A stretch of DNA of 64,000 nucleotides from a virus. Lineage: Duplodnaviria; Heunggongvirae; Uroviricota; Caudoviricetes. The stretch lies in IMG/VR virus record IMGVR_UViG_3300025644_000002; one strand, given 5' to 3'. The notes beneath the pieces were generated by a model that was not told the origin of the DNA, did not search any database, and saw only the letters and a program-made list of their open reading frames with translations. Shown one piece after another: positions 26,982 through 62,265 of this stretch; position 1 is the first letter of the stretch; each line of letters opens with the position of its first letter. The position numbers and the translations under genes were made by a program.

Positions 26982-27191
26982 ATGAGTAAAGTAGGAAACA
27001 ACAGCGGAAAAGATTATATTCTATGTTGTTGTATATGCTCTTCAACTAGAAAGGACATCCACATGGTGGGGCATCGTAATAAAGATAACCACTTAATAGG
27101 CTTCCTTTATGTATGTGATGAACACACTAAACAAGTAGAAGGAAAAAACTTTCAAGTAAAGTTCGTAGATGAAAAAGAGGAGACTAAATAA
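26982..27191 (+). CDS. small Cys-rich zinc-finger protein
   Basis: CCCICSS…CDEH. Confidence 0.4.
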   Translation: MSKVGNNSGKDYILCCCICSSTRKDIHMVGHRNKDNHLIGFLYVCDEHTKQVEGKNFQVKFVDEKEETK

Positions 27192-27888
27192 TATGGGAGA
27201 CGGAACCCCACTAGGTGATCGTATGAAAGATTATGAAGCTACCTATAAATACAAGCTTCACAAAAGAATGCCAGTAATAATAAGAGTAGACGGTAGAGCG
27301 TTTCACACTCTTACAAGAAAATTATATGGAAGAGGATGGTCTACCGGATTCTCTGCAAATATGATGGAAACTGCTAGGGCTTCTATGGAAGATATGCAGT
27401 CAACAAAGTTTTGCTATGGTCAATCTGATGAGATCAGTTTTTTATTAACGGATTATAAAACTCATAACACACAGTCGTGGTTCAATAATTCCATACAGAA
27501 AATAGTATCAATTACAGCAGCTATCGTAAGCACTAACTTTTATTCAATAACTGGCGAAAAAGTGCAGTTTGATGCTAGAGCTTTTAATTTGGCAAAAGAT
27601 GAAGTGACAAACTATTATATCTGGAGACAACAAGATGCTATACGCAACGCTGTCCAGATGGTAGGAAGAGAGCATTTCTCTCAGAAAGAACTTCACATGA
27701 GAAGTGTTGAGAATATAAAACATCTTCTATCCAAAAAGATAGGAATTAATTTTGATGACTTCTCTAGTTTAAGACGACAAGGGTACTGTATAGACAATAA
27801 CCACCCAGATATGAATATCCCAGTGTTTGCCTCAGCTAGGGGTAAAGATTACATTGAAAAACATGTATATTTAATAGAAAATAATTAA
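27169..27888 (+). CDS. Thg1-like protein (tRNA-His guanylyltransferase family 3'-5' nucleotide polymerase)
   Basis: VIIRVDGRAFHTL ~ Thg1 VVVRLDGRNFHRF; CYGQSDEISFLL ~ AYGQSDEYSFVF; YYIWRQQDAIRNA ~ YLSWRQADCHINN. Confidence 0.7.
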   Translation: MKKRRLNNMGDGTPLGDRMKDYEATYKYKLHKRMPVIIRVDGRAFHTLTRKLYGRGWSTGFSANMMETARASMEDMQSTKFCYGQSDEISFLLTDYKTHNTQSWFNNSIQKIVSITAAIVSTNFYSITGEKVQFDARAFNLAKDEVTNYYIWRQQDAIRNAVQMVGREHFSQKELHMRSVENIKHLLSKKIGINFDDFSSLRRQGYCIDNNHPDMNIPVFASARGKDYIEKHVYLIENN

Positions 27889-38202: not shown

Positions 38203-39276
38203 ATGAATACAGTCCTAACAGTTTTAGAAACCCAAATAAAGGAAGGGTGGGTAAAGCGAAGAAAACATCCAGAGTTTCCACTTTGGATATATAATTATAC
38301 CCATGCCACACAGTATGCTCGAAATTGGAACGATACCACTACTAGATGTAGGGGTCTTATACTAGATGAATATGGAACTGTAGTAGCCAACCCTTTTAGA
38401 AAATTTTTCAACTATACAGAATTAGAAGGACTAGGTATCGAGCTCCCAGATGACCACTACAGCATTTTTAATAAACTAGACGGATGTCTATTTATAATGG
38501 TTATGTGGAGGGGGCATTTAATTAAATCTACAAGAGGCTCTTTTGATAATGAATATATTACAGAGGCCAATGTAGTCTTAGAAGAAAAATACCCTGACCT
38601 TACTATAAGGGAGGACTTCACATACTGCTATGAGTTCTTAACACCTACTCTTAAGAAAGGGGGGATGACCTGTATCACCTACCCAGAGAGCGACCTAAGG
38701 CTATTGGCAGTACGCGATACGTTTACTGGCAGAGAGATAGGGTTGCACGCTGTTACTACTTGTATACCAAGAACAGAGCTATATGAACATGATTGCGATG
38801 TAAGTGAGTTATATAATGTACCAAATCAAGAAAACAAAGAAGGATTTGTGTTAGCATATGATAACGGGTTCAGAGTTAAAGTAAAATTTGACTGGTATGT
38901 AAGACATCACCGTATATTGCAGCTTTGCAATGATAAAACGGTATGGAAATACTTATCAGATCCAGAATTAGATATACAAGAGTTAATTGATATTGTACCA
39001 GATGAATACTATAAATGGCTTCATACCTCTATAGATAACTTTAGAGAGAATTATGTGATATTAGCAAACACTGCTTGTAAACAATACATGCACCTTATAA
39101 CTAGTTTCCCAGAATCAATTGATATGAAAAAACGAACTTCCAAAGCAGTAGCAGAAAAAGTCATAAATATTGGAAATAAACAAATAATTTCTTTAGTATT
39201 TACAATGTTACAAGGGAAAAACATAAAGCCCTTAATTTGGAAATATTTAAAACCAAAACAAACGGAGAAAAAATGA
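38203..39276 (+). CDS. rnlA: RNA ligase 1 (T4 RnlA-like)
   Basis: Motif I FNKLDGCL; EGFVLAYDNGFRVKVKFDWYVRHH ~ T4 Rnl1 [24 protein letters not shown]. Confidence 0.65.
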   Translation: MNTVLTVLETQIKEGWVKRRKHPEFPLWIYNYTHATQYARNWNDTTTRCRGLILDEYGTVVANPFRKFFNYTELEGLGIELPDDHYSIFNKLDGCLFIMVMWRGHLIKSTRGSFDNEYITEANVVLEEKYPDLTIREDFTYCYEFLTPTLKKGGMTCITYPESDLRLLAVRDTFTGREIGLHAVTTCIPRTELYEHDCDVSELYNVPNQENKEGFVLAYDNGFRVKVKFDWYVRHHRILQLCNDKTVWKYLSDPELDIQELIDIVPDEYYKWLHTSIDNFRENYVILANTACKQYMHLITSFPESIDMKKRTSKAVAEKVINIGNKQIISLVFTMLQGKNIKPLIWKYLKPKQTEKK

Positions 39277-39437
39277 AAAATCCCGGATTCATACTATTTA
39301 TAGTATTACTTGTCCTAAAGTTAGTTGGAGTCATTACATGGAGTTGGTGGTGGATAACTGCCCCGCTGTGGCTTGGCTTCGTCTTATTATTTTTAGCTGT
39401 AGGCGGTATAGCTGCAATTGCAAGTTGGCTCGATTAG
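39237..39437 (+). CDS. small membrane protein
   Basis: ORF track; two TM helices. Confidence 0.4.
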   Translation: MEIFKTKTNGEKMKNPGFILFIVLLVLKLVGVITWSWWWITAPLWLGFVLLFLAVGGIAAIASWLD

Positions 39438-39939
39438 ATATTTACTAATACTACTCACAAATATATGTTTATGCGTTGGAGCCTTACCTGAGGAATGGAA
39501 AGCTTTAACAAGCCATCAACAAGAATCAATACGGGCATCCTATGAATATGGGGTGCCCTTTGATTTAGGGTGGACATTAGCTGCTATTGAGTGGCAAGAA
39601 TCTGCAGGAGGTAAATACCTTGTAAATTTGCAAGACCCTTCCGCAGGAGCTCACCATATCAATATCAACACATATATGAGTAGACATAGAGATGAGATAG
39701 AGGACACACCCTTTAATAGGAATGTAGTGGCCCAATGGCTCATAGATAGTCACATACTTAGTTGTAGAGAAGCAATAACTGAACTAACCTATTGGAAGAA
39801 TGAGAGACATAATGGTAGCTGGTCCAAAACTGTAAGATCCTACAGGGCGGGCAATCGCTGGGAGTCTCCAGCAGGTTGGCAATATTATAAAAGTATAACA
39901 GCCAGAATAAACTTTTTAAAACAAGAATGGAAATTATAA
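39418..39939 (+). CDS. hypothetical protein (173 aa)
   Basis: ORF track. Confidence 0.45.
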   Translation: MQVGSIRYLLILLTNICLCVGALPEEWKALTSHQQESIRASYEYGVPFDLGWTLAAIEWQESAGGKYLVNLQDPSAGAHHININTYMSRHRDEIEDTPFNRNVVAQWLIDSHILSCREAITELTYWKNERHNGSWSKTVRSYRAGNRWESPAGWQYYKSITARINFLKQEWKL

Positions 39940-39940
39940 A

Positions 39941-41005
39941 ATGAGACATTTAGCAACAATCCAACTCATAGCTAATTTAGAGCCTATCTCTGGAGCAGAT
40001 GTAATTGAAAAAGCAACTGTAAAAGGCTGGCATCTAGTAGTTAAGAAGGGGGAATTTCAAATAGGTGATAAATGCGTCTACTTTGAAGTGGACTCTTTGT
40101 TGCCAGAAATAGAGCCGTTTGAATTCTTAAAGAAAAACGGTGTCAAAACAATAGATGACGGCACAAGAGGTTATCGCTTACGAACTATAAAATTGCGTAA
40201 GCAAATTAGTCAAGGGCTAGCCATGCCATTAGATACTTTCGAAGAGCTCGCCGATGGCCCCGAAGTGGGAACAGACGTAAGTGAACTTTTGAAAGTAGTA
40301 AAATATGAAGCACCCATTCCAGCATGCTTAAGTGGCCAGATTAAAGGCCACAGACCTTCCTGGATTCCTAAGACGGATGAAGAACGTGTACAGAATCTTG
40401 TAGATGAAATAAAAGAATGGGCAGGAACAGAGTGCTACATAACAGAGAAATTAGATGGATCGTCATCTACCTTTTATTATGCACCTAACTACCGAAAAGC
40501 AACACCTTTCGGAGTATGCAGTCGGAAGCTTGACCTAATAGAGAATGACAAAAATTCTTTCTGGAAAGTCGCTAGAGATATTGACGCAGAAGAGAAAATG
40601 TCTAAACTTGGTATAAATGTAATTTTCCAAGGAGAATTACTGGGGCCAGGGATTCAGAAAAATAAATACAAATTGTCTGCTACAGAAGTAAAAATGTTTA
40701 ACGCTTTTACTATACAAGATGGTGGCTTTGGAAGTATTGAGAGCTTTCTAAATCTTATATTTGGGGACTACACAACTGAGGGGGAAGTTCGCGTACGAGG
40801 GTTAGATAGAATATTTAATACTGTACCTGTCCTTAATCCAAAGATGGTGTTAAACCATACAGTAGACGAATTAGTAGAGCTTTCTAAAGGCCCAAGCCTT
40901 CTAAATCCTGATATCCCAAGAGAGGGAATTGTGATTAGAGCGAGAGATGGTAGCTTTAGTTTTAAAGTAATTAACCCTGACTTCTTAATTAAGTTTGGAG
41001 AATAA
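39941..41005 (+). CDS. rnlB: RNA ligase 2-like nucleotidyltransferase (Rnl2 family) with an extra N-terminal domain
   Basis: Motif I TEKLDGSS; FQGELLGPGIQKNKYKL ~ T4 Rnl2 FGEFAGPGIQKNVDY; motifs EGIVIR and SFKVINPDF. Confidence 0.6.
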   Translation: MRHLATIQLIANLEPISGADVIEKATVKGWHLVVKKGEFQIGDKCVYFEVDSLLPEIEPFEFLKKNGVKTIDDGTRGYRLRTIKLRKQISQGLAMPLDTFEELADGPEVGTDVSELLKVVKYEAPIPACLSGQIKGHRPSWIPKTDEERVQNLVDEIKEWAGTECYITEKLDGSSSTFYYAPNYRKATPFGVCSRKLDLIENDKNSFWKVARDIDAEEKMSKLGINVIFQGELLGPGIQKNKYKLSATEVKMFNAFTIQDGGFGSIESFLNLIFGDYTTEGEVRVRGLDRIFNTVPVLNPKMVLNHTVDELVELSKGPSLLNPDIPREGIVIRARDGSFSFKVINPDFLIKFGE

Positions 41006-41389
41006 ATGAAAAGTAACCAGCTTTTAAAAACACTGAAAGATGGCGATATAGTATTAATGGTGCTTCCTGGGTTATATGAGCCTTCAGTGTTAGAGATATG
41101 CCAACTCAAAAATACTAAATTCATTCCAAAGGGTGAGGGGCGCTCTTTCGACTGGTTAGACTTTGACTCTGACACTTTGTATGTAAATACTCGCGTACAT
41201 AGTTCACAGTTAGGTGAATCAGCTGGAAACTGTTTGTCAATAACAGAAGTGATAGCTCCCGAGCATCTTGAACAATTTGCACGAAATAAAGATATGTGGA
41301 AAGCATCTTTATACCAATACTCTGACGTTGAGTACAAACACGCCCAGAGTACGGCGGAGAGTTCTATAAAGTTATGGGATAGAGACTAA
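41006..41389 (+). CDS. hypothetical protein (127 aa)
   Basis: ORF track. Confidence 0.45.
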   Translation: MKSNQLLKTLKDGDIVLMVLPGLYEPSVLEICQLKNTKFIPKGEGRSFDWLDFDSDTLYVNTRVHSSQLGESAGNCLSITEVIAPEHLEQFARNKDMWKASLYQYSDVEYKHAQSTAESSIKLWDRD

Positions 41390-41413
41390 GCCATAAATAA
41401 AAGGAAATACAAA

Positions 41414-42328
41414 ATGAGACAAGTAATAATACTACGGGGGTTACCCGCAAGCGGTAAGACTTCGTATGCCGTAGATATGATGGATAAAATGCCAGATACA
41501 TACAAACGTGTAAATAGGGATAGTCTACGAAGCATGGTTGATGGTGGAGTATACTCTAAAGGAAATGAGAAAATAATTAAAGCAATTAGAGACTCTTTAA
41601 TCTTTAGATACTTAGATGCCGGAAGATCAGTATTCGTAGATGATACAAACTTACACAGCTCAAATGAGGAGCATATTAGAAAAATAGTGGCGGACTATAA
41701 CATTTTACGGGAAGTTAAGCACGACGTATTAGTTGTGGTTAGAGAATTCCCTACAGATGTATTTGATGCCATTGATCGAGACGCATTACGTACAGGATCG
41801 GCCCATGTAGGCTCTAAAGTTATTTATGATATGTACAGTAGGTTTCTAAAGAAAGATGAGCCTCACGACTATCCTGAGCCTCCAGGCACGGTTGAGTTGG
41901 TAGACGGCTTACCTAAGGCAATCATTTGTGACTTAGACGGCACGATGGCATTCCTTAAAGGCCGTAACCCTTATGACGCCTCTACTTGTGAGAACGATAC
42001 TTACAATGCGATTTTGGGGGAAATTCTTCACGTTATGGACAAACAGGGATACCAAATAATCTTTTTATCTGGAAGATCGGAAAAATACCTTTCAGAAACT
42101 AGACAGTTTTTGAAAGCAAACCTTCCGTTTCCTCATTGGAAGATGTTCATGAGACCATTGTTTGAGCATAATATAAGAGATTCAATTCTTAAACGCAAAC
42201 TTTATGATGAACACGTTAAAGATAAATACAACGTATTTTGCGTGTTTGATGATAGAGACCAAGTAGTTGGTCTATGGCGTAAAGACTTAGGTCTACAATG
42301 TTTCCAAGTAAACTACGGAAACTTCTAA
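41414..42328 (+). CDS. pnk: polynucleotide kinase / 3'-phosphatase (T4 Pnk-like)
   Basis: N-terminal P-loop GLPASGKTS; C-terminal HAD motif ICDLDGT. Confidence 0.65.
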   Translation: MRQVIILRGLPASGKTSYAVDMMDKMPDTYKRVNRDSLRSMVDGGVYSKGNEKIIKAIRDSLIFRYLDAGRSVFVDDTNLHSSNEEHIRKIVADYNILREVKHDVLVVVREFPTDVFDAIDRDALRTGSAHVGSKVIYDMYSRFLKKDEPHDYPEPPGTVELVDGLPKAIICDLDGTMAFLKGRNPYDASTCENDTYNAILGEILHVMDKQGYQIIFLSGRSEKYLSETRQFLKANLPFPHWKMFMRPLFEHNIRDSILKRKLYDEHVKDKYNVFCVFDDRDQVVGLWRKDLGLQCFQVNYGNF

Positions 42329-42382: not shown

Positions 42383-43246
42383 ATGCAAAAATTGCACTTC
42401 TTAATAATTGATCCACAAAACTCTTTTATGGATCGAAACAATGATTTAGTCTTACTTCAAAAAGCCGGCATAAATTTGGCGGATATAGGATTACGACTTC
42501 CAGAACCAGAATTACCGGTACCGGGGGCTTATGAGGACTCTGAGAGGTTAGCTATGGTGCTTAACCGCTTAAGAGGTAAAATTACTGGGATCCACGTGAC
42601 GCTAGATACCCACCAATTGTTGGATATTTCGCATCCATTATTTTGGATGAATAGTGCTGGAGAACATCCGGGCCCGTTTACACTTATAAGTCTAGACGAC
42701 TTAAACGGATCAGTTTGGACACCGACTAGCCCAGATCGAATTCCAAGAGCCAGAGCTTACCTGCAAGCTCTCCAAGACAACGACAGATACCTTCTGTGTA
42801 TATGGCCACCACATTGTAAAGTGGGCACATGGGGCCACAATGTAGTAGATGTTGTAAACGCAGAACTTGAAGCCTGGGAAGAAAGCAGAAAACGCAGAAT
42901 AAACTATGTTACAAAAGGACACAACCCTTGGACAGAACATTACTCTGGCGTTATTGCTGATGTACCTGACGATGAAGATCCTACTACGCAGTTAAACGTC
43001 ACTCTTTTAAAACTTTTAAAAGACGCAGACATAATTGCCCTTTCAGGTCAGGCTCTATCACACTGTGTAGCTAATACAGTTAAAGATATTGCAGACAACT
43101 TCGGAGAAGAGAATATCAAAAAACTAGTACTGCTTGAAGACACTTCTTCAAATGTTACTGGGTTTGAGAAATTGGGTACCGACTTTGTAACGGAAATGGT
43201 TTCACGCGGTATGCAGATCTGTAAAGCTGAAGACTTTTTGAAATAA
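42383..43246 (+). CDS. isochorismatase-family hydrolase, putative nicotinamidase (PncA-like)
   Basis: LIIDPQNSF resembles the isochorismatase/nicotinamidase N-terminal motif; fits the NAD salvage set. Confidence 0.45.
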   Translation: MQKLHFLIIDPQNSFMDRNNDLVLLQKAGINLADIGLRLPEPELPVPGAYEDSERLAMVLNRLRGKITGIHVTLDTHQLLDISHPLFWMNSAGEHPGPFTLISLDDLNGSVWTPTSPDRIPRARAYLQALQDNDRYLLCIWPPHCKVGTWGHNVVDVVNAELEAWEESRKRRINYVTKGHNPWTEHYSGVIADVPDDEDPTTQLNVTLLKLLKDADIIALSGQALSHCVANTVKDIADNFGEENIKKLVLLEDTSSNVTGFEKLGTDFVTEMVSRGMQICKAEDFLK

Positions 43247-43276: not shown

Positions 43277-44041
43277 ATGGTAGATACCATGCAAAGTGTG
43301 GACTTATTAGGAGCTGGAAATTTTAAGTTTTCAGCAATAGGCTTAGATGAACTAGAAGCCTCCGAATATACCTTAGTAGGTATAGTCGTTGACATTACCG
43401 GATCAGTGGGCGGTTATGAAACTATGTTACAAAAGATGATTGAAGAAATAGTGGGGGCATGTAAAATGTCTGCACGTTCTGAAAATCTACTTGTTAGGGT
43501 AACACTGTTTAATAGTCAGACTGATATTTTGGAAATCCATGGATTTAAGCCTGTAAACGATATAGATTTAAGTGAGTATTCAGGGAAATTAGTACCTGAC
43601 GCAGCTACTAACCTGTTTGATGCCACTTATGATATGATCGGATCAATTGAACAGTATGGTAAATCCCTAGCGGACCAGGAATACAGTGTAAATGCTGCCG
43701 TGTATGTTATTACAGACGGAGATGATAATTCTTCGACTATGACAGCCACTAATGTAAAGGACAGAATACACTCCATTAAACGTGCCGAAGAATCAATTGA
43801 ATCTTTAATTTCCGTATTAATCGGGATAGGCACAGACGGCAACCATGGTTGGGGCTCTAGGGTTTCACAACTATTAAAAGAGTTTAAAGATGATGCAGAC
43901 CTCACGCAATATATTGATGCGGGCAATGCAAATGCTAAAACTCTTGCAAAATTAGGGAATTTCATTAGCCAAAGCATTAGTTCACAGAGCCATTCACTTG
44001 GCACTGGCGGACCTTCTGCTCAAGCTAGTATGAAATTCTAA
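43277..44041 (+). CDS. von Willebrand factor A domain protein (TerY-like)
   Basis: MIDAS DITGSVGG…TDGDDN. Confidence 0.55.
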   Translation: MVDTMQSVDLLGAGNFKFSAIGLDELEASEYTLVGIVVDITGSVGGYETMLQKMIEEIVGACKMSARSENLLVRVTLFNSQTDILEIHGFKPVNDIDLSEYSGKLVPDAATNLFDATYDMIGSIEQYGKSLADQEYSVNAAVYVITDGDDNSSTMTATNVKDRIHSIKRAEESIESLISVLIGIGTDGNHGWGSRVSQLLKEFKDDADLTQYIDAGNANAKTLAKLGNFISQSISSQSHSLGTGGPSAQASMKF

Positions 44042-44072
44042 CTTACAAAACGTACGTAAGAAACGGCGTAAC

Positions 44073-44140
44073 GGGGCGGTATCTCAGCAGGGTAGAGTTA
44101 GGGGATACCCTAGACATTGGTTCGAATCCAATCCGCGCTG
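44073..44140 (+). tRNA. tRNA-like gene (68 nt) whose anticodon arm is replaced by a TAGGG-GATA-CCCTA tetraloop hairpin
   Basis: Acceptor GGGGCGG/CCGCGCT, D-arm, canonical T-arm ATTGG-TTCGAAT-CCAAT, but no 7-nt anticodon loop can be folded. Confidence 0.35.
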
Positions 44141-44169
44141 TTACGTTCGTTCTTATTAAAAGGAAAACT

Positions 44170-44949
44170 ATGAACATAGATTCACATTTTATTCAAGGGG
44201 CCACTCATCGGGTTTGTGAAGATTATACACTTCATGGGGAAACAGATGAGATAGCTTATATTATTGTATGTGATGGGTGTTCAAGCGCTCCTCACACAGA
44301 TTTTGGAGCTAGATTAATAGCCCATAGTGTAGAACAAGCCATTAGAGAATTTGGAGAGCTGACTCGTCAAAAATTAGAGTGGCAACTTCAATTATGTAAA
44401 GGTTATACTGATGTCCAAGGCCTGGACCGCCGTATGCTGCTGTCAACTGTGTTGGTAGCTATCTATAATAAAGAAAAACAAAGCTTTTATATTCTTATGG
44501 CCGGAGATGGACATTGTTTCTTAGATTCAAAAGAAGGACCGCTTCATATAGATATTCAATCACCTCATAATACTCCATACTATCCTGCGTATAACATTAC
44601 TCGAAAAGATCAGGAAGAATACAAAGAGTGTTTAAAGGACAAAGGACAAACAGTTGTTCACATGAATGATGGTGACGAGGATCCTACCAATGTAGCATTA
44701 GAAACTGGAATGCCCTTTATATTTCAGCCTGATTACCCGATAGCTTCGGTAATTTTAACTACTGATGGTATAGACCAAGTAATAGATAGGGATACTGGAG
44801 AGAGAGTAGTGATTGATGATATCATCACTCATTTCCCAAGTGCCGCAGGAGCATTCGCTGTAAGAAAACTAAGGTTTCTTAAGAAAACCTGGAATAGAAA
44901 TTATATTACTAACGCAGACGATATTGGAATTGCTGGAATAATATTATGA
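44170..44949 (+). CDS. PP2C-family Ser/Thr phosphatase
   Basis: VCDGCSSAPHTDFGA ~ PP2C xDGxGGxxxG motif; sits between the vWA and kinase genes. Confidence 0.5.
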   Translation: MNIDSHFIQGATHRVCEDYTLHGETDEIAYIIVCDGCSSAPHTDFGARLIAHSVEQAIREFGELTRQKLEWQLQLCKGYTDVQGLDRRMLLSTVLVAIYNKEKQSFYILMAGDGHCFLDSKEGPLHIDIQSPHNTPYYPAYNITRKDQEEYKECLKDKGQTVVHMNDGDEDPTNVALETGMPFIFQPDYPIASVILTTDGIDQVIDRDTGERVVIDDIITHFPSAAGAFAVRKLRFLKKTWNRNYITNADDIGIAGIIL

Positions 44950-46637
44950 AGGTTTTAGTACAAGGAAAGGGGCAAGTATCATTATTAGACTCTAATTTTG
45001 TAGCTCAAGGTGGAGAGGGTAAAGTATATGTAAAAGGTGGAAGAGCTTATAAAATATTTCATGACCCAAAAACTATGATACCTGAAGAAAAAATTAGGGA
45101 ACTGTCAGTTCTTACTAAGAATACCATTATAAAACCTGAGAATTTAATTTACACTACAAAAAACACGTTAATAGGATTTATGATGCAGACTGTACCTCAG
45201 TCTATTCCATTACCAAGAATGTTTACATCTGCGTATCTTAATAGAAACAATTTAAATAACGATACCGTTACTAAATTAGTTACAAATATTAAGGATACAA
45301 TTAGTCATGTGCACGATCATGACATAATAATGGTCGATGGTAACGAATTAAATTATTTAATAGAAACTAGAAAGCATACTACTGCTTATTGTATAGATGT
45401 AAACTCATGGCAAACTCCTAATTATCCAGCTACAGTAATTATGCCCTCTATTAGAGATTGGCATGCTACAGAATTCACAGAAATTTCAGATTGGTTTTCC
45501 TTCGCTGTAATAGCTTGTCAACTGTTTATAGGAATTCACCCATATAAGGGAAAGAATTCTCACTTTAAACGAGCTACATTAGAAGAACGTATGAGAGCAA
45601 ACGTATCAATCTTTAACCCTGAAACGCGTGTTCCGGGCGCAGTAAGGGACTTTACAAATATACCTAAGAGTTATTATGATTGGTTTAAAGAAGTATTTGA
45701 AAATGGTTATAGAAGTACTCCTCCAGACATGAAAGGGCAGTACATTATACTTCCAATAACTCCTATAATAACAACACACACCGGAAGCAAATATTTTACA
45801 ATACAACAATTAAACGATTATCCTGGCGACATAATTGACTGCACTTATTTTGGTAGACAGTATATAATATATACCAAAAAAGATGTTGTCATATATAACA
45901 ATAATAGTTATATTAAAGATACCACCTCCAAGGTTTTTTCACACAGTATGTCTCAAAAGACGTTTCTTGTGAAAACTAAGGATGAATCTTTAGTATACAG
46001 ATCATTGGAAGATAGCCAATCTCCTTATCATAGTACAAATATTAAGGTTGAAAAAACTATGATATACGAAAATAGGCTATATGGCGTAAACAAGGATAGA
46101 TTTTTTGAAATAGATGTATTAGATACCGGCTCAAAGCCTACGTTTTATATTTTAAATACTTGGGAAATATTCAATAATTCTACAGAAATGTTAGATGGAG
46201 TATTATGTTCTAGTATTTTAGGTAAAACTCATTTATATTTACCATACGCACCCAACAAATGTGCAATTGTAGCAATTCCTGAACTAGATAAGTACAAGAT
46301 AATTGATGCAAAATGCCGAGACAGGGTTTGTATGATAATAGGACAATCAGGCAGCAAGTATGATAAATTTATTATCGTATTCGATGAAAATTTCAAAAAA
46401 TATGATATAAGAATCTTGAAGGACGCAGATAATATGTTGAATTTTATCTGCCTACCTAACGGATTAACTATAAGTATACATGAAGATGGCGCTTTAGAAA
46501 TGTTTCGCGCTAAGGCTTCAAGTGATGTGCAGGTCTACAAAGACTCTGCCATCAAGTCGTCGATGACACTGGCCCACGAGGGCAATATTGTTCGGTTCTA
46601 TGAAATGAATCGGATGTATCAACTAAAAATGAAATAA
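44946..46637 (+). CDS. eukaryotic-like Ser/Thr protein kinase
   Basis: Gly-rich loop AQGGEGKVYV, AYKIF (VAIK-like), DWFSFAVIACQLFIGIHPYKG (DxWSxG…P). Confidence 0.55.
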   Translation: MKVLVQGKGQVSLLDSNFVAQGGEGKVYVKGGRAYKIFHDPKTMIPEEKIRELSVLTKNTIIKPENLIYTTKNTLIGFMMQTVPQSIPLPRMFTSAYLNRNNLNNDTVTKLVTNIKDTISHVHDHDIIMVDGNELNYLIETRKHTTAYCIDVNSWQTPNYPATVIMPSIRDWHATEFTEISDWFSFAVIACQLFIGIHPYKGKNSHFKRATLEERMRANVSIFNPETRVPGAVRDFTNIPKSYYDWFKEVFENGYRSTPPDMKGQYIILPITPIITTHTGSKYFTIQQLNDYPGDIIDCTYFGRQYIIYTKKDVVIYNNNSYIKDTTSKVFSHSMSQKTFLVKTKDESLVYRSLEDSQSPYHSTNIKVEKTMIYENRLYGVNKDRFFEIDVLDTGSKPTFYILNTWEIFNNSTEMLDGVLCSSILGKTHLYLPYAPNKCAIVAIPELDKYKIIDAKCRDRVCMIIGQSGSKYDKFIIVFDENFKKYDIRILKDADNMLNFICLPNGLTISIHEDGALEMFRAKASSDVQVYKDSAIKSSMTLAHEGNIVRFYEMNRMYQLKMK

Positions 46638-46649
46638 TCAAGACAACAA

Positions 46650-47036
46650 ATGAGCAATTTATACTCAAAATTAAGTGACGATAAAAAATATGATGCAGTA
46701 GACTTCGTACTGTACTGGAACGAGCCAAACGTAATGGTTGAGCTATTAGTACCAGGTTATCAGGCTTCTAACATTAAAATTAGAATAGCTAAGGCTGGAA
46801 CTGCGTTCGGCAATTCGCCTTCAACTCATGACCGCCTGTTAGTGACAGCTGGACCGGATAAAGAGATTGGTAAAGGAACTTTCTGTAAAGGTTTCTATAA
46901 CGAATTTCCATTACAGAACGGTGAACATTTTAATTATGGAAAATTAACTAGTTCGCTAGTTCGTGGTGTTTTAACCATCGCCATACCTGTAAAAGGGAAA
47001 TTCACTCCACAGGAGTTCACAGTTAGCGAAGGCTAG
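46650..47036 (+). CDS. Hsp20 / alpha-crystallin-family small heat shock protein
   Basis: …GKLTSSLVRGVLTIAIPVK C-terminal alpha-crystallin-like beta strands. Confidence 0.45.
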   Translation: MSNLYSKLSDDKKYDAVDFVLYWNEPNVMVELLVPGYQASNIKIRIAKAGTAFGNSPSTHDRLLVTAGPDKEIGKGTFCKGFYNEFPLQNGEHFNYGKLTSSLVRGVLTIAIPVKGKFTPQEFTVSEG

Positions 47037-47100: not shown

Positions 47101-47140
47101 AGGCCCGGCGATCACTCGCTGGGTCTTTTTTTTAACAATT
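47101..47140 (+). terminator. Rho-independent terminator (CCCGGCGA…TCGCTGGG + T9)
   Basis: ggcccggcgatcactcgctgggtcttttttttaac. Confidence 0.5.
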
Positions 47141-47161: not shown

Positions 47162-47839
47162 ATGAGATTATTAATGAGAGCGTTAGTAGGAAGTAGATTG
47201 CATGGGTTAGATACTCCTATAAGTGATTTCGATTATAAAACTGTATTTATTGAGACTACTTCAAATATTTTAGCTTTACCAGAGCACCAGCCCAGCGATC
47301 CAAAGGATCCAGCAGATACCTGGGAATTAGCTAGATTTCTACATTTCGCATTAAGAAGTAATCCTACAATTCTGGAAACTTTTAAAGCGACATTTACTAC
47401 AGAAAACGAGAACTGGTGTGAAGAGTTAAGAAGTCTATTTCCAGACGTTTGGAGTTCTAAATTAGTTTTCCACTCGTACAGGGGTTATGCTCAATCGCAA
47501 CGCAAAAAGCTTTTAGAAAATGATGAAGCCCTTAGTAATGGAAATGTAGAATTAGATACCATTAGAAAAAGAAAATCATCAGCGGCCTGGTTAAGAATGT
47601 TATATAATGGATACGAACTATTACAAACTGGCGATTTTACAGCCAGAATAGCTGATACAGAAGTAGGCATTCTTTGCAGAAAATATAAGGAAGGCGAATC
47701 TACTATACCAGAGGTTATAAAAACTTGTAGCTCTTGGGAAGAAAAACTAGAAGACGCGTTTAATAAGTCTACAAAAAAAGAAGCTAACTCAAAATTAGTA
47801 AATGATTTTCTATTAAAAATAAGAAAAGTTTCTTGGTAA
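47162..47839 (+). CDS. minimal nucleotidyltransferase (Pol-beta superfamily)
   Basis: GSRLHGLDTPISDFDY matches GS…SDxD. Confidence 0.45.
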   Translation: MRLLMRALVGSRLHGLDTPISDFDYKTVFIETTSNILALPEHQPSDPKDPADTWELARFLHFALRSNPTILETFKATFTTENENWCEELRSLFPDVWSSKLVFHSYRGYAQSQRKKLLENDEALSNGNVELDTIRKRKSSAAWLRMLYNGYELLQTGDFTARIADTEVGILCRKYKEGESTIPEVIKTCSSWEEKLEDAFNKSTKKEANSKLVNDFLLKIRKVSW

Positions 47840-49031: not shown

Positions 49032-49103
49032 GCCGTGGTCGTCTAATGGTAAGACGCTCTTAGTCCGCTAAGAGAAATGGAGGTTCAACTCCTTCCCTAG
49101 GCT
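49032..49103 (+). tRNA. tRNA-like gene with a non-canonical anticodon arm (CTCTT-AGTCCGCT-AAGAG, 8-nt loop, or a 6-bp stem with 6-nt loop)
   Basis: D-arm TCGTCTAATGGTAAGACG, T-arm GGAGG-TTCAACT-CCTTC, acceptor GCCGTGG/CCTAGGC with 2 mismatches. Confidence 0.35.
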
Positions 49104-49112
49104 CTAATTTAT

Positions 49113-51213: not shown

Positions 51214-51675
51214 ATGAAAAACACAAACCAAATAATTTTCTCCGCAAAGAAGCCATCAGGCTATGATCAATATTTTTCTAATTTTGCACATTCCCCTATT
51301 ACTATAGAAGGTATTGAATATCCAACAGTAGAGCATGCGTTTCAAGCACATAAAACATTTAATAACACAATACGTAAAGAAATAGCACAGTTAAAAACCC
51401 CTGGCAAATCTAAACGTGCGGGTAATAAAGTAAATCTTCGCCCAGATTGGGAAGAAGTAAAATATGACATTATGGTTATGTGCTTAAGAGAAAAATTCAA
51501 AATAGATCTTTACAAAAAGATTTTACTATGTACACAAGATGCAGAATTAATAGAAGACGCGGCTGAATGGAACGACGCAATATGGGGCATCGGAAAAAAT
51601 GGTAAAGGTACAAACCTTTTAGGAAAAGCATTAATGAAAGTAAGAAAGGAACTAAAAGAAAATGAATGGAAGTAA
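51214..51675 (+). CDS. NADAR-domain protein (YbiA-like)
   Basis: EYPTVEHAFQAHK…W…NLLGKALMKVR matches the NADAR/DUF1768 signature. Confidence 0.55.
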   Translation: MKNTNQIIFSAKKPSGYDQYFSNFAHSPITIEGIEYPTVEHAFQAHKTFNNTIRKEIAQLKTPGKSKRAGNKVNLRPDWEEVKYDIMVMCLREKFKIDLYKKILLCTQDAELIEDAAEWNDAIWGIGKNGKGTNLLGKALMKVRKELKENEWK

Positions 51676-52135: not shown

Positions 52136-52429
52136 ATGGAGAGGAAACAGATGTTTAAATTAAAAGTAGATGACGTTATAACGGTACGAGCTAGTACTGG
52201 CGAAGACCACATTCCGTCATACTGGACACAACGTAGGTGGGCAATAACTAAAGTTAGTCCCACTAAAATAGACGTTCAAGGATACGATAACTACGGTTGG
52301 AGAAAGATAGCAGAAAGACACTTTTTATTGAAAGACTATGCTATCGAGCGTTGTATAATAGAGGTGGTTGACGGTTCTTCCAGCCTAACCGTATTACGTA
52401 CAATACACTCTGGAAAGGATACCAAATAA
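52136..52429 (+). CDS. hypothetical protein (97 aa)
   Basis: ORF track. Confidence 0.4.
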   Translation: MERKQMFKLKVDDVITVRASTGEDHIPSYWTQRRWAITKVSPTKIDVQGYDNYGWRKIAERHFLLKDYAIERCIIEVVDGSSSLTVLRTIHSGKDTK

Positions 52430-53574
52430 TGTTAATTAATTCAATTTTAGATAACGACATATATAAATTTACACAACAAATGTTTGTTTGTCAGCAATTT
52501 CCAAACCTGGAAGTAGAATACAAGTGGATATTGAGAACTCCAGTTGAGTTTAGTGACTCGTTTGCTACAAAATTGATAAGCAATATTAACGCAATGGGAT
52601 CACTACGGTTAACTGATTCAGAAGCAACTTTTTTAAAAAAGAAATGTTATTATTTCACTCCCGTGTATAGGGACTTTTTAAAAGGGTATGCGTATGACTC
52701 TTCTGAAGTAGAAGTAATTTATGAACCCGGTAAACAACATCAATTTGAGATATGTATTAGAGGTCCCTGGTATAGGACTATACTGTGGGAAGTACCTATT
52801 ATGGCTATTATTTCAGAGATGTCTAATGGGGAATTAAGCCCGCTGTATGAGTTAGAAAAACAGAATATAGAAAAATTGAGAATTATACACGATAATCATT
52901 TAAGCGTAGCCGACTTCGGAACTAGACGAAGGCACTCTTATGACGTACATGATAAAACTCTTAATATTTTAAAGCATGGATTGGTAGGAACCTCTAATGT
53001 TCATTTTGCCAAAAAATATAATTTAACCCCAACAGGTACACAAGCTCACGAAGTATATATGGTCTTATCACGCCTATACGGTTACAAGATGGCAACTACT
53101 ATGGTATTAGAGAAATGGGTAGAAGTGTTTCAAGGAAGTCTGGGAACAGCTTTACCAGATACCTTTACTACAGACGTTTTTCTTAAAGAATTTGCCATGA
53201 AGTATTCTAAACTATTTGACGGTGTGAGGCAAGACAGTGGGGACCCGCTTGTGTTTGCTAACAAAATTATTAACCACTATGAGCATTTAAACATTGATCC
53301 GAAAAGTAAATTAATAATCTTTTCAGACAGTTTAAATCTCGAAAAAGCGGTACACATCGAAAAAGAAGTGAATAAGCACATTAAAACGGCTTACGGAATT
53401 GGTACCAACTTCACTAATGATACAGACGTTACACCATTGAATATGGTAATCAAAATTAACGCTGTTAAATTAAATGATGTATGGGAACCAGCTATTAAGT
53501 TGTCAGATTCCCCGGGAAAACATACAGGCGATCCAGACGAGATTGCGTTATGTAAACAAATATTAAAGGTTTAA
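52429..53574 (+). CDS. pncB: nicotinate phosphoribosyltransferase (PncB)
   Basis: LDNDIYKFTQQMFV, GPWYRTILWEVPIMAIISE, FGTRRRHS, TPTGTQAHE, RQDSGDP, KLSDSPGK all match E. coli PncB blocks. Confidence 0.75.
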   Translation: MLINSILDNDIYKFTQQMFVCQQFPNLEVEYKWILRTPVEFSDSFATKLISNINAMGSLRLTDSEATFLKKKCYYFTPVYRDFLKGYAYDSSEVEVIYEPGKQHQFEICIRGPWYRTILWEVPIMAIISEMSNGELSPLYELEKQNIEKLRIIHDNHLSVADFGTRRRHSYDVHDKTLNILKHGLVGTSNVHFAKKYNLTPTGTQAHEVYMVLSRLYGYKMATTMVLEKWVEVFQGSLGTALPDTFTTDVFLKEFAMKYSKLFDGVRQDSGDPLVFANKIINHYEHLNIDPKSKLIIFSDSLNLEKAVHIEKEVNKHIKTAYGIGTNFTNDTDVTPLNMVIKINAVKLNDVWEPAIKLSDSPGKHTGDPDEIALCKQILKV

Positions 53575-54161: not shown

Positions 54162-54665
54162 TTGAAAGTAATATTTTTAGATATCGACGGCGTACTCAAT
54201 AATCGTGAGTCGGTACATAAACGACATGAAGAAAAGTTAGGAAATGTATGGCTTCCAGACATAACGCTAGTAGAACGCTTAAAGCAAATAATTGACGCAA
54301 CTGGAGCACAAATAGTAGTATCCTCAACTTGGAGACTTCATGGTGATTCATTTATGTTTAGACATCTATTTGCTGCCTTGGGATTCAATTTACCCTTCGT
54401 AATAGGGAAGAGTACCCCAAGACTACATAAAAGAAGAGGCATAGAAATTCAACAATGGCTTGATGAGCATAATGCCGAATACGACGCAGATCCTGAGTTC
54501 TCTAAAGAACATTACCACGAAAGAGCCGATTCCTTCATAATTTTGGACGATGACTCAGACATGGAGCATTTAATGGATCGACTAGTACAAACAAAAACAG
54601 ATTTAGGTCTACAAGATGAGCATGTAGAACAAGCAATTAAATTATTAAATACTCCGGCGGGGTAG
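54162..54665 (+). CDS. HAD-superfamily phosphatase
   Basis: Motif I FLDIDGVLN; TTG start per track. Confidence 0.5.
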   Translation: MKVIFLDIDGVLNNRESVHKRHEEKLGNVWLPDITLVERLKQIIDATGAQIVVSSTWRLHGDSFMFRHLFAALGFNLPFVIGKSTPRLHKRRGIEIQQWLDEHNAEYDADPEFSKEHYHERADSFIILDDDSDMEHLMDRLVQTKTDLGLQDEHVEQAIKLLNTPAG

Positions 54666-55297: not shown

Positions 55298-55696
55298 GTG
55301 ATAAACAGAGTATTTTTAGGAGGCACTTGCGCACATACAACCTGGAGGAATCAAATAATTCCTCAACTAACTATAGACTACTTTAATCCAGATGTGGAAG
55401 ACTGGACAGAGGCGTGCCAAGCAATAGAAATGGATGAAAAAGACAATAAATGTAATGTACATTTTTATCTTATTTCTAAAGAAATGCAAGGAGTATTTTC
55501 CATAGCAGAAGTTGTAAATAGCGCACACACCCACGGCAAACGAACTATATTGCACGTTAGGCCTGATGGATTTGATAAAGGACAGCTCAAAAGTTTAAAA
55601 GCTACTGTAGAGTTAGTAAATGCTGCAGGAGGAATAGCTTACATAGATAACAACATACACAGGGCGGTTACCATATTAAACAACTGCTTTGCTTAA
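55298..55696 (+). CDS. hypothetical protein (132 aa) adjacent to the NAD genes
   Basis: ORF track; GTG start. Confidence 0.4.
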   Translation: MINRVFLGGTCAHTTWRNQIIPQLTIDYFNPDVEDWTEACQAIEMDEKDNKCNVHFYLISKEMQGVFSIAEVVNSAHTHGKRTILHVRPDGFDKGQLKSLKATVELVNAAGGIAYIDNNIHRAVTILNNCFA

Positions 55697-55713: not shown

Positions 55714-56505
55714 ATGAAACTTAGACAAGACATAATTGACTTACAAGATTTTATAAAAAGAACAGTAGAAGATGCAGGTGCTGATGGGGTAGTCATAGGA
55801 TTATCTGGAGGAGTAGACTCCGCAGTAATTGCGGCTTTAGCTCAAAGAGCTTTAGGGCCAGAGAAGGTTATGGCGGTGTGGCTGCCTTACCATGAAACAG
55901 TTATTCCCTCAATATCTAATTTATTTCATGGAGCTGATAATATACTAGCTCTTGCAAAACATCTCCAATTAAACCTTAATTGTATAGATATTACCACTTC
56001 TGTAGACGCCATGATAGAGGGTATGACTTATATCCAAACAGAGGCAATAACTACCCTCACAAAAGGGAATATGAAAGCCCGGGCCCGCATGTCTGCACTG
56101 TACCTGCTAGCAAATAGTACCAATAACCTCGTAATAGGAACAACTAACAAGTCTGAATACGAAATAGGGTACTTTACTAAATATGGAGACGGTGGAGTAG
56201 ATTTTGAACCATTGTTAGAGTTTTACAAATTTGAAGTTAGAGAAATAGCTAGAGAATTAGAGCTACCTAACGAATATGCAAATGCGGTAGCTTCTGCGGG
56301 ATTATGGGAAGGACAAACTGATGAACAAGAATTTGGATTTACATACCAAGAACTAGATTCTTATTTGATTTGGTGGAGTACTATGGACTGTGAAAATGTA
56401 CCATCTCCGGTTTCTGTAGAAGTTATGAATAATATCGAAAGTATGATAAACAATAGCCGTCATAAACGCGATAATATTCCAAGCTTTTTAAGGGACATAG
56501 CCTAA
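55714..56505 (+). CDS. nadE: NH3-dependent NAD+ synthetase (NadE)
   Basis: PP-loop GLSGGVDSAV. Confidence 0.7.
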   Translation: MKLRQDIIDLQDFIKRTVEDAGADGVVIGLSGGVDSAVIAALAQRALGPEKVMAVWLPYHETVIPSISNLFHGADNILALAKHLQLNLNCIDITTSVDAMIEGMTYIQTEAITTLTKGNMKARARMSALYLLANSTNNLVIGTTNKSEYEIGYFTKYGDGGVDFEPLLEFYKFEVREIARELELPNEYANAVASAGLWEGQTDEQEFGFTYQELDSYLIWWSTMDCENVPSPVSVEVMNNIESMINNSRHKRDNIPSFLRDIA

Positions 56506-57098
56506 TGCCAAAAATTAAGATTAAATTTGTATCAGACGCTTTAATAGAGCCCCAACATGTAATAGCTGAAACATTAAATCTAGAAAATGAAGCTGGAGAA
56601 ACTACTGATTGGGAAATAGTTAGAAGAATTGGAAACCAAAAGTCTGTAGCGGGAGTATTTCATGACCGCTCTGGAAGATTCTTACTAATTAAGGAGTGGA
56701 GACCTGCGTTAGATAACTACATTTGGTCATTTCCAGCAGGTATGATAGAAGAGGGAGAAACTCCAGAAGACGCTATGCGTAGAGAATTGTTGGAGGAAAC
56801 TGGATATGAAGTAGACGGGGCTTGTAGAGTATTTCCTGCAGCCATCAATACCGCAGGAATGTCAGATGAAGCAACTCATTTAGTAATGGGAGCTTTAGGA
56901 AGTTACTTACCAGAGCAACAGTCGTTAGGAGACTTTGAAGATATAGACCAAATAATCTTAATTAATGGTTATAATTTACTTAGTTTCATAGCCTCTGAAA
57001 AAGCAAAAAAAGTAGAAATCTCAAGCAGACTTCTGTCATTTGCAGCAGGATTATCTTTTATGGAATCTCCAAATTACGAATATATAAGGATGAAATAA
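56505..57098 (+). CDS. Nudix hydrolase
   Basis: Nudix box PAGMIEEGETPEDAMRRELLEETG. Confidence 0.65.
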   Translation: MPKIKIKFVSDALIEPQHVIAETLNLENEAGETTDWEIVRRIGNQKSVAGVFHDRSGRFLLIKEWRPALDNYIWSFPAGMIEEGETPEDAMRRELLEETGYEVDGACRVFPAAINTAGMSDEATHLVMGALGSYLPEQQSLGDFEDIDQIILINGYNLLSFIASEKAKKVEISSRLLSFAAGLSFMESPNYEYIRMK

Positions 57099-57634
57099 TG
57101 AGAACAATTCACATATACGGGGGGTCATTTGATCCTCCTCACTTGGGACATATGGCAGCTGTTGAATACTTAAATAATAAAATATATAACTCCGAATACC
57201 CTAGTTCAGATTTATTACTTATTTGCCCGTCATTTAATCCCTTTAAAATAGAACAACCTCTTCAAAGCGATTACAACGACAAAGTAGCAATGTGTGCTAA
57301 AGCTTTCCCAAATAACTTTATATTACATTATAACCATACGTATATGATGAGTTTAATTAATCATATACAGATTATGTATTATAATGTGAATATTGTAATT
57401 TATGTAGGCGATGATGATACTGGGTTAGAAGTTCATAAGTGGCAGGATATTGATGAAATTAAAAAATGCGCAGCTATAGAGTCGATTGATTTAGGAAAGA
57501 TTTCAGAGTATACTCACGCAAGTAGCGGTAAAGTTAGAGAACACATTTGTAAAGCTGAGTATGAGTTGGCTGGAAGATTACTCGACGGAAGTATCTTTGG
57601 CTATATTATAGGACATCAACTATATAAAGAATAA
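57098..57634 (+). CDS. nadD: nicotinate/nicotinamide mononucleotide adenylyltransferase (NadD-like)
   Basis: GGSFDPPHLGH (HxGH nucleotidyltransferase motif). Confidence 0.65.
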   Translation: MRTIHIYGGSFDPPHLGHMAAVEYLNNKIYNSEYPSSDLLLICPSFNPFKIEQPLQSDYNDKVAMCAKAFPNNFILHYNHTYMMSLINHIQIMYYNVNIVIYVGDDDTGLEVHKWQDIDEIKKCAAIESIDLGKISEYTHASSGKVREHICKAEYELAGRLLDGSIFGYIIGHQLYKE

Positions 57635-62185: not shown

Positions 62186-62261
62186 GGCTGGGTAGCTCAA
62201 TTGGATAGAGCGGGGGACTCTAAATCCCTGTCAGCTACAGGTTCGAGCCCTGTCCCGGCCA
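62186..62261 (+). tRNA. putative amber suppressor tRNA (anticodon CUA, loop CTCTAAA)
   Basis: Hand fold: acceptor GGCTGGG/CCCGGCC (1 GU pair), D-arm TAGCTCAATTGGATAGAGC, anticodon stem GGGGA/TCCCT, U33 present, T-arm ACAGG-TTCGAGC-CCTGT. Confidence 0.65.
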
Positions 62262-62265
62262 CAAT

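Follow-up and report, generated by a model that had tools for sequence, protein, structure and literature searches.

A predicted nicotinamidase gene heads a conserved four-gene unit that includes a TerY-P-like triad of a large phage

What purpose is served in a phage by a von Willebrand factor A (vWA) protein, a PP2C-type phosphatase and a serine/threonine kinase encoded in a row? Such a triad lies at positions 43277-46637 of a 64,000 nt stretch of Caudoviricetes DNA (IMG/VR record IMGVR_UViG_3300025644_000002; the whole stretch is referred to here as the window). An original prediction, made from the sequence alone, likened it to the bacterial TerY-P triads and saw in it either a captured defence module or a means of taking over host signalling. 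Computational comparison with phage and bacterial relatives showed the triad to be preceded by a predicted nicotinamidase gene, with which it makes up a conserved unit of four genes, in the order nicotinamidase, vWA protein, PP2C phosphatase and a kinase that carries a beta-propeller. The reading preferred here, to which a probability of roughly 0.5 is given, is that a kinase/PP2C switch with a vWA partner controls nicotinamidase-driven salvage of nicotinamide adenine dinucleotide (NAD+).

The four genes of the unit

The three open reading frames (ORFs) of the triad are genuine genes with strong conservation, as opposed to reading frames open by chance. Together with the gene that precedes them, they are arranged as follows:

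42383-43246, + strand: predicted nicotinamidase (PncA-like, isochorismatase superfamily), 287 aa, first gene of the four-gene unit
43277-44041, + strand: TerY/YegL-like vWA protein with a complete metal ion-dependent adhesion site (MIDAS), 254 aa, assigned by family alignment, AlphaFold2 (AF2) model and hhalign to YegL
44170-44949, + strand: PP2C-type (PP2C_2) Ser/Thr phosphatase, 259 aa, PF13672
44946-46637, + strand: YegI-like Ser/Thr kinase (approximately residues 1-260) with a seven-bladed WD40-like beta-propeller (approximately residues 275-563), 563 aa

The nicotinamidase and vWA genes are separated by 30 nt and the vWA and PP2C genes by 128 nt, while the ATG of the kinase overlaps the PP2C stop by 4 nt. 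A Shine-Dalgarno-like AAGGAG is situated 8 nt 5' of the vWA start. The three triad genes are thus adjacent and co-oriented, as first described, with all on the + strand and with short gaps or a 4-nt overlap between them.

The predicted nicotinamidase is the best conserved of the four, with over 3288 homologues (identity of up to 58%), and PF00857 or the name 'nicotinamidase-related amidase' is attached to many of these. Its catalytic triad D10-K178-C228 was invariant among 24 sequences, and its metal ligands D75-x-H77 and WPPH144C were likewise invariant, with WPxHC aligning with yeast Pnc1. The family profile matched nicotinamidases only in the PDB, with E-values from 9e-10 to 2e-3 (yeast Pnc1 2h0r at 9e-10, then 29iv, Mycobacterium tuberculosis PncA 3pl1 and Pyrococcus horikoshii PncA 1ilw). 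Searched alone, without the family profile, the window protein reached an E-value of 0.0095, and it gave no match itself in Pfam or NCBIfam. Classical PncA proteins are about 180-215 aa long and are not known to have vWA, PP2C or kinase partners, whereas members of the present subfamily are 265-287 aa long and share a conserved insertion of about 80 aa.

For the vWA protein of the window no match was obtained in Pfam, NCBIfam or a single-sequence search of the PDB. Its 977 homologues include several with a precomputed PF00092 assignment and the JGI name 'YegL', and among 22 aligned relatives nine matched Pfam VWA and four also VWA_CoxE. The AF2 model (predicted local distance difference test score, pLDDT, 89.5; predicted template modelling score 0.88) retrieved exclusively vWA and integrin I domains in Foldseek, at approximately 1e-8. 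Alignment of the vWA profile with Escherichia coli YegL by hhalign gave a probability of 84% and an E-value of 8e-6, with the MIDAS motifs aligned, and pairwise BLAST between the two proteins was not significant. The MIDAS predicted at the outset is conserved across the family (D39-x-S/T41-x-S43, T111 and D147). Of the two motifs by which it had been described, ITDGDDN was found, but the first motif is D-I-T-G-S and not DxSGS. The C-terminus consists of a long helix followed by a conserved Ser/Gln/Gly-rich tail, SQSISSQSHSLGTGGPS, which is disordered in the AF2 model. Single ORFs of 612 and 693 aa that match both vWA and PP2C were observed in metagenome-assembled genomes (MAGs) of Chthonomonadaceae and Armatimonadales (Armatimonadota; L120:8101-9939 and L140:7900-9981). 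These predicted fusions, which are possibly sequencing frameshifts, would argue that both proteins work together.

The phosphatase matched PF13672 PP2C_2 with an E-value of 5e-13 and 49.4 bits (cut-off 24). The metal-binding residues D18, D35, D199 and D250/D251 were invariant in 22 relatives from phages and bacteria, as was D113 of the GDG motif, in agreement with the PP2C-like phosphatase originally proposed. The PP2C profile gave weak PDB matches to Stp1-type phosphatases and a weak match to the N-terminus of PphC; pairwise BLAST with PphC was not significant.

The match of the window kinase to Pfam Pkinase (E-value 2e-4, 21.1 bits) was under the gathering cut-off of 31.7. However, its N-terminal 260 or so residues matched E. 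coli YegI by BLASTP (E-value 2e-12), and YegI was recovered by jackhmmer from the kinase at 1.2e-37. Residues G22, G23, K36, E52, D131, N136 and D151 were invariant in 27 relatives, covering the glycine loop, the beta3 Lys, the alphaC Glu, the catalytic Asp/Asn and the DFG-type Asp. The AF2 model (pLDDT 87.5) matched kinase and WD40 structures in Foldseek, and the C-terminal 290 residues were identified from both as a seven-bladed WD40-like propeller. The fold and catalytic residues of a eukaryotic-type Ser/Thr kinase were therefore as predicted, but the strict GxGxxG was not found, the loop reading GGEG. Profile searches for each domain, suggested as a check, thus gave a match above cut-off for PP2C, one below cut-off for the kinase and none for the vWA protein of the window.

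More than 1100 full-length relatives of the kinase were identified. The propeller searched alone gave 836 cluster representatives at 50% identity. Among the best 150 matches it was found at the C-terminus of proteins of about 560 aa or in shorter, mostly-propeller proteins, with no other propeller architecture hinting at a ligand. The best Foldseek match over both domains was LRRK2, which likewise has a kinase followed by a seven-bladed propeller. This is an analogy of fold only, at 12-13% identity and with no evidence of common descent for the fusion; the propeller is specific to the present prokaryotic and viral family.

Linkage of the four genes in phages

Pattern scans that started from either the kinase or the nicotinamidase were used to assemble related loci, which were made non-redundant at <90% identity. 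Among 67 kinase-seeded IMG/VR loci, a nicotinamidase was found in 58, vWA in 61 and PP2C in 64, with all four genes present in 54. The usual order in four-gene viral loci was nicotinamidase-vWA-PP2C-kinase. When nicotinamidase was the seed (56 viral loci), vWA was found in 49, PP2C in 50, the kinase in 47 and the full triad in 43. Three of these loci had no triad gene; PncB was situated a few genes downstream in each, as was NadE in two of the three. A few loci lost their kinase label, possibly through recoded stops or frameshifts, and it was also observed that the kinase ORF of several related loci is lost under the standard code.

Megablast of the region against GenBank phages returned zero matches. 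By tblastn, the only relatives among GenBank phages were three huge uncultured phages of 462-595 kb, all of which possess the four genes in the same order; a fourth phage record gave a short match to the N-terminus of the kinase only.

The unit was found to consist of two tight pairs, nicotinamidase-vWA and PP2C-kinase, with insertions occurring mostly between the pairs. The nicotinamidase and vWA genes lay side by side in 46 of the 58 viral loci and in 25 of the 28 genome loci. Adjacency of PP2C and kinase was seen in 43 of 64 viral loci and in 27 of the 28 genome loci with PP2C. The 'viral' and 'genome' collections each contain misassigned contigs. In some of the phage loci (L007, L008, L016, L002, L042 and others), PP2C and kinase are separated by a small ORF of approximately 100-125 aa, which is absent from the window and may be a fifth, lineage-specific component.

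The commonest other gene families within 10 kb of the kinase in the viral loci were Nudix (21 loci), PncB (20), NadE (12), NADAR (11) and the NAD+-dependent ligase LigA (10). NadD and Macro were also among the viral neighbours, with RtcB, Thg1 and RlaP being rarer. RtcB was at one point considered a recurrent partner, in the form of a gene product of about 385 aa often encoded 3' of the kinase. Clustering identified these mostly as PncB, with RtcB in seven loci, and the candidate was rejected.

The unit in bacterial chromosomes

A scan of bacteria with the kinase profile, limited to one genome per species, gave 79 loci of which 50 were evaluable. Many of these lie on genuine chromosomes, for instance in Capsulimonadaceae assemblies of 3.8-6.2 Mb. 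All four genes were present in 18 of the evaluable loci, and nicotinamidase, PncB or NadE in 36. The search for synteny in bacteria suggested with the original prediction thus identified the four-gene operon in bacterial chromosomes, flanked by PncB, NadE or NrtR:

Loci L115 and L133: PncB-nicotinamidase-vWA-PP2C-kinase-NrtR
Loci L131 and L138: the unit with PncB directly after the kinase
Locus L148: the unit with NadE directly after the kinase
Locus L172: NrtR-nicotinamidase-vWA-PP2C-kinase

The 'Nudix' genes of the bacterial operons were found to bear the winged-helix domain of NrtR, which is an ADP-ribose-responsive repressor of NAD genes. In Competibacteraceae, a nicotinamidase-PP2C-NrtR operon that contains no vWA gene adjoins a SIR2 gene. 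Where bacterial loci were fully annotated, the surroundings were housekeeping genes.

This distribution bears on the suggestion that the kinase phosphorylates host proteins in the manner of T7 gp0.7, with PP2C and vWA modulating its activity. The catalytic residues of the kinase are intact and the phage is large, encoding many host-independent functions, both of which are in keeping with such a role. However, bacterial chromosomes, which offer no host for takeover, have the four-gene arrangement as well, and the pairing of the kinase with its own phosphatase points to a self-contained switch. Host takeover was consequently not upheld, although no direct comparison with gp0.7 was made, and is judged improbable.

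NAD+ genes of the window

Further genes of NAD+ metabolism were identified 5-14 kb downstream of the kinase gene:

51214-51675, + strand: NADAR domain protein (PF08719, E-value 3.3e-30)
52429-53574, + strand: nicotinate phosphoribosyltransferase PncB, second Preiss-Handler step (Pfam NAPRTase and NAPRTase_N)
55714-56505, + strand: NAD+ synthase NadE, fourth step (Pfam NAD_synthase, E-value 8.6e-68; TIGR00552, 223.7 bits against a cut-off of 63.65)
56505-57098, + strand: Nudix hydrolase (best weak matches to ADP-compound and ADP-ribose pyrophosphatases)
57098-57634, + strand: NadD-like nicotinate-nucleotide adenylyltransferase, third step, weak assignment (Pfam CTP_transf_like, E-value 9.5e-9)

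Together, the predicted nicotinamidase, PncB, the NadD-like protein and NadE make up a predicted complete Preiss-Handler route from nicotinamide to NAD+. Of its steps, PncB and NadE pass their cut-offs; the NadD-like protein is below, its ten best NCBIfam matches all being Na(M)N adenylyltransferase models, each under cut-off; and PncA is identified by motifs and profiles. PncB matches the nicotinate-specific equivalog TIGR01514 (387.5 bits, cut-off 269.55), so that a pathway beginning with nicotinamide would require a nicotinamidase. The nicotinamidase motifs, the PncB equivalog and NadE are shared with Preiss-Handler and NrtR-regulated NAD operons, and NrtR closes the bacterial operons of the present unit. 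A nucleoside 2-deoxyribosyltransferase-like protein (55298-55696, + strand; PF15891, E-value 7.6e-10) was also observed in this cluster, directly 5' of NadE.

Genes for NAD+ synthesis are known from jumbo phages (PMC11662467). Three NAD+ reconstitution pathways of phages have been described, namely NARP1 (Adps and Namat), NARP2 (Nampt and Nmnat) and NARP3 (PnuC and NadR), and were shown to counter NAD+-depleting immunity (bioRxiv 10.1101/2024.02.11.579819; PMC13464706). The genes of the window likewise represent phage-encoded rebuilding of NAD+. They differ from NARP1-3 in that the predicted route passes via nicotinic acid (deamidation, PncB, NadE) and has a kinase/phosphatase/vWA unit built in; a role in counter-defence is conjectural for them.

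Comparison with TerY-P systems

Comparative genomics has recognised TerY-P-type triads since 2012, and some of them protect against phages. Their definition comprises a TerY-like vWA protein, a PP2C phosphatase and a Ser/Thr kinase with a zinc ribbon at its C-terminus (PMC11090510). Zinc-ribbon triads occur as parts of CoCoNuT systems, and stand-alone TerY-P-like defence systems have been reported in which the kinase carries an OB fold (PMC11090510). In E. coli K-12, the genes yegL-pphC-(yegJ)-yegI are found in the same order as in the window; YegI is active as a kinase and crosses the membrane twice (bioRxiv 10.1101/819920).

The window triad agrees with TerY-P and with the E. coli genes in its three domains and in their order and orientation, and its kinase, a homologue of YegI, and its vWA protein belong to the same lineages. 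Its vWA protein and PP2C phosphatase, however, are only remotely similar to YegL and PphC. Its kinase is soluble and has a seven-bladed propeller in place of the zinc ribbon or OB fold of TerY-P and the two membrane passes of YegI. Furthermore, nicotinamidase is a fixed fourth member, and the surroundings are genes of NAD+ salvage, not Ter or restriction genes, none of which were identified among the annotated ORFs of the window. PADLOC gave no match in the window; this is uninformative, as an E. coli YegL/PphC/YegI control likewise gave no TerY-P match, models of this kind seemingly being absent from its library. On account of its different kinase C-terminal module and genomic partners, the triad is a TerY-P-like variant, not a member of the described TerY-P systems. 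The TerY-P architecture originally proposed therefore stands for the domain identities and for the vWA-PP2C-kinase order, but not for the zinc ribbon or OB fold or for a Ter or defence context.

These comparisons also bear on the proposal that the triad is a captured bacterial anti-phage or stress module, used in the phage for superinfection exclusion against competing phages. Its architecture and the lineages of its kinase and vWA proteins resemble TerY-P, modules of which act in defence as described above. In addition, a nicotinamidase-vWA pair was found beside TerD and HIT genes, without a kinase, in a Gammaproteobacteria MAG (GCA_024235135.1; locus L092, with L093 in the same MAG). This was the sole direct link to Ter genes observed. 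In a related MAG (GCA_024235155.1; L005), the kinase stands alone among housekeeping genes. Against a defence role, the constant partner is nicotinamidase, the genes usually nearby are those of NAD biosynthesis and NrtR and not of restriction or Ter systems, the kinase ends in a propeller, and the fully annotated bacterial loci lie among housekeeping genes. With the triad being the tail of a nicotinamidase-led unit beside PncB, NadE and NrtR, the captured defence module is not borne out and is considered quite unlikely. Both this proposal and host takeover fit poorly because the same operon is conserved in bacterial chromosomes. A HpcH-type C-C lyase was also observed at L092, approximately 6 kb from the nicotinamidase-vWA pair.

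Transcription unit and tRNA-like element

The features that surround or interrupt the unit are as follows:

39941-42328, + strand: upstream genes for an RNA ligase (39941-41005), a 127-aa ORF and Pnkp (41414-42328)
44073-44140, + strand: tRNA-like element in the vWA-PP2C gap (Rfam RF00005, 37.6 bits against a gathering score of 29, E-value 1.2e-6)
46650-47036, + strand: 128-aa ORF starting 12 nt past the kinase stop, with weak Hsp20 similarity
47101-47126, + strand: intrinsic-terminator-like hairpin of 11 bp, including seven G-C pairs, followed by a T run

A consensus scan identified strong terminator-like hairpins on the + strand at 39533-39558 and 47101-47126, with no strong + strand site between 39558 and 47101. 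The second of these hairpins probably ends a transcription unit, and the predicted spacing is consistent with one unit extending from the RNA ligase through the 128-aa ORF past the kinase. Co-transcription of the triad, on which the original prediction depended, is to this extent not contradicted by the predicted sites. The 128-aa ORF itself was rejected as a member of the module. Its Hsp20-like similarity is sub-threshold (Pfam HSP20, E-value 0.085; NCBIfam Hsp14, E-value 0.006, under cut-off), and no counterparts were found by jackhmmer in related loci, so that it is without conservation beside the module.

The tRNA-like element possesses acceptor, D and T arms. Its anticodon arm has a 4-nt loop and hence no anticodon, and its acceptor stem is lengthened by flanking pairing (minimum free energy -40.9 kcal/mol, z -3.7). 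ARAGORN made no call at this site, nor did it identify a tRNA in 102 related module regions, only one of which contained a strict T-arm pattern. The element is apparently not a conserved part of the module, as judged by these two scans. It could be the remnant of a tRNA, a decoy or a signal at which RNase P or RNase Z processes the mRNA.

The position of the unit raises the possibility that the triad instead controls RNA ligase, Pnkp and RlaP in the repair of tRNAs cleaved by anticodon nucleases of the host. In the window, the unit is flanked by RNA ligase and Pnkp on one side and by RlaP on the other and contains the tRNA-like element; RtcB, Thg1 and RlaP also recur near the module in some phages. 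However, RlaP was found in only six, Rnl in three and Thg1 in eight of the 67 viral loci, compared with 58 for nicotinamidase, and RNA-repair genes are essentially absent from the bacterial operons. A role as regulator of RNA repair is accordingly regarded as very improbable.

Proposed role in NAD+ salvage

The preferred reading, that of a phosphorylation switch over NAD+ salvage, builds on the observed domain identities, conserved catalytic residues and gene linkage. From these, a substrate for the kinase, a role for the vWA protein and a counter-defence benefit are inferred. The kinase and PP2C would form a reversible Ser/Thr phosphorylation switch, with the propeller serving as an input or docking domain of the kinase. 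As a binding partner (Mg2+/Mn2+-dependent, by way of the MIDAS) or as a target, the vWA protein would link the switch to the nicotinamidase. It is placed on the side of the nicotinamidase because it is a near-constant neighbour, has a complete MIDAS and a conserved Ser-rich tail and is occasionally fused to PP2C. The switch would gate the entry of nicotinamide into NAD+ resynthesis, and the phage would benefit by having NAD+ kept available during infection, for example for NAD+-dependent ligases. As a conjecture, NAD+ may be rebuilt from the nicotinamide freed by NAD+-degrading host defences.

A different part for the vWA protein would be that of a metal-loading or assembly chaperone for the nicotinamidase, whose metal ion it would insert or hold or which it would bring into a complex, with the kinase and phosphatase merely timing this step. 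The D-x-H...H metal site of the nicotinamidase is invariant, the MIDAS is complete and VWA_CoxE is matched by some relatives (four of 22, as above). The nicotinamidase-vWA pair is the tightest of the unit and occurs also without a kinase at L092, and vWA domains have been described as Mg2+-dependent peptide-binding chaperones (PMC9503650). However, no MoxR-type AAA+ partner was found among the module neighbours in viral loci, and the Competibacteraceae nicotinamidase-PP2C-NrtR operon contains no vWA. This explanation, which overlaps the preferred one and is hard to tell apart from it by sequence, is thought unlikely.

Several points weigh against control of NAD+ salvage by the triad. Linkage alone cannot tell which protein phosphorylates which, and the tie of kinase, PP2C and vWA to the nicotinamidase is accordingly a putative one. 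The predicted identity of the nicotinamidase is based on motifs and on profile matches with E-values of 1e-9 or weaker, and the roughly 80 aa that it has in addition to classical PncA may point to another pyridine-amide as substrate. Approximately one third of bacterial kinase loci have no nicotinamidase, vWA or PP2C gene within 10 kb (e.g. L005 and L004). The counts are approximate, as the loci came from seeded pattern scans and their genes from a simple script that took the longest ORFs (standard code), with labels from jackhmmer. Within the window, the four-gene unit appears to share its transcription unit with genes of RNA repair (RNA ligase, Pnkp), and the other NAD genes are 5-14 kb away, interspersed with tRNA genes.

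The switch over NAD+ salvage may be extended by a sensing step. The propeller-kinase would sense the state of the infected cell, such as products of NAD+ breakdown, and via the vWA protein would switch the nicotinamidase on, so that NAD+ is rebuilt by the Preiss-Handler enzymes of the phage itself and NAD+-depleting immunity defeated. This extension is tentative and, although possible, doubtful.

Further features of the window and its source

The window is AT-rich, with a GC content of 35-40%, and contains 22 tRNA genes (ARAGORN). Its toolkit for RNA repair and tRNA metabolism was observed to be unusually full (38203-42328, 47162-47839, 54162-54665 and 27169-27888). It comprises a T4 Rnl1-like ligase, Pnkp, an RlaP nucleotidyltransferase, a Thg1-like tRNA-His guanylyltransferase, a second RNA ligase with a PHA02142 OB domain and a HAD_SAK_2 'Swiss army knife' RNA-repair phosphatase domain. 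These genes are interleaved with the NAD genes and the 22 tRNAs. One tRNA (62186-62262, + strand) has a CTA anticodon and was labelled tRNA-Pyl by ARAGORN, that is, of the amber-suppressor type. It hints at a possible reading of TAG as a sense codon in some genes of this phage or of related ones. Another (49032-49104, + strand), to which ARAGORN gave an undetermined identity and a two-base 'anticodon' (cc), is situated inside a dense tRNA cluster at 47.8-50 kb.

The vWA protein is deposited as MBT6047697.1, and a kinase that is at least 90% identical to that of the window and falls in its cluster as MBT6047699.1, both from a 'Candidatus Scalindua sp.' MAG. Judged by gene content, the source of these MAG sequences is most likely a large phage placed in the bin of a bacterium.

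Implications

TerY-P triads and phage NAD+ reconstitution are already known, while the coupling of such a triad to nicotinamidase is apparently new within the literature searched. That search was incomplete, but no description of an association of nicotinamidase, vWA, PP2C and kinase was found in it, including in broad surveys of jumbo phages and of viral NAD+ and ADP-ribose systems. The vWA/PP2C/kinase unit is not mentioned in the papers on NARP and on jumbo-phage NAD+ genes (PMC11662467; bioRxiv 10.1101/2024.02.11.579819; PMC13464706).

The findings tie a large and diverse branch of TerY-P-type triads to one enzyme, nicotinamidase, and one pathway, NAD+ salvage. The inputs and targets of these triads have so far been without assignment, and the link to nicotinamidase makes this question directly testable. 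The unit also bears on NAD+-depleting bacterial immunity and on the reconstitution of NAD+ by phages, for which a regulated route via nicotinic acid is undescribed in the literature searched. Should the triad have no role in NAD+ metabolism, it would be an ordinary but well-conserved signalling cassette in a large phage. If instead the sensing extension is true, the unit would join the three described routes of NAD+ reconstitution in phages as a fourth, regulated kind. In that case it would also provide the first concrete biochemical role for a TerY-P-type triad, one shared with a widespread bacterial NrtR-linked operon.

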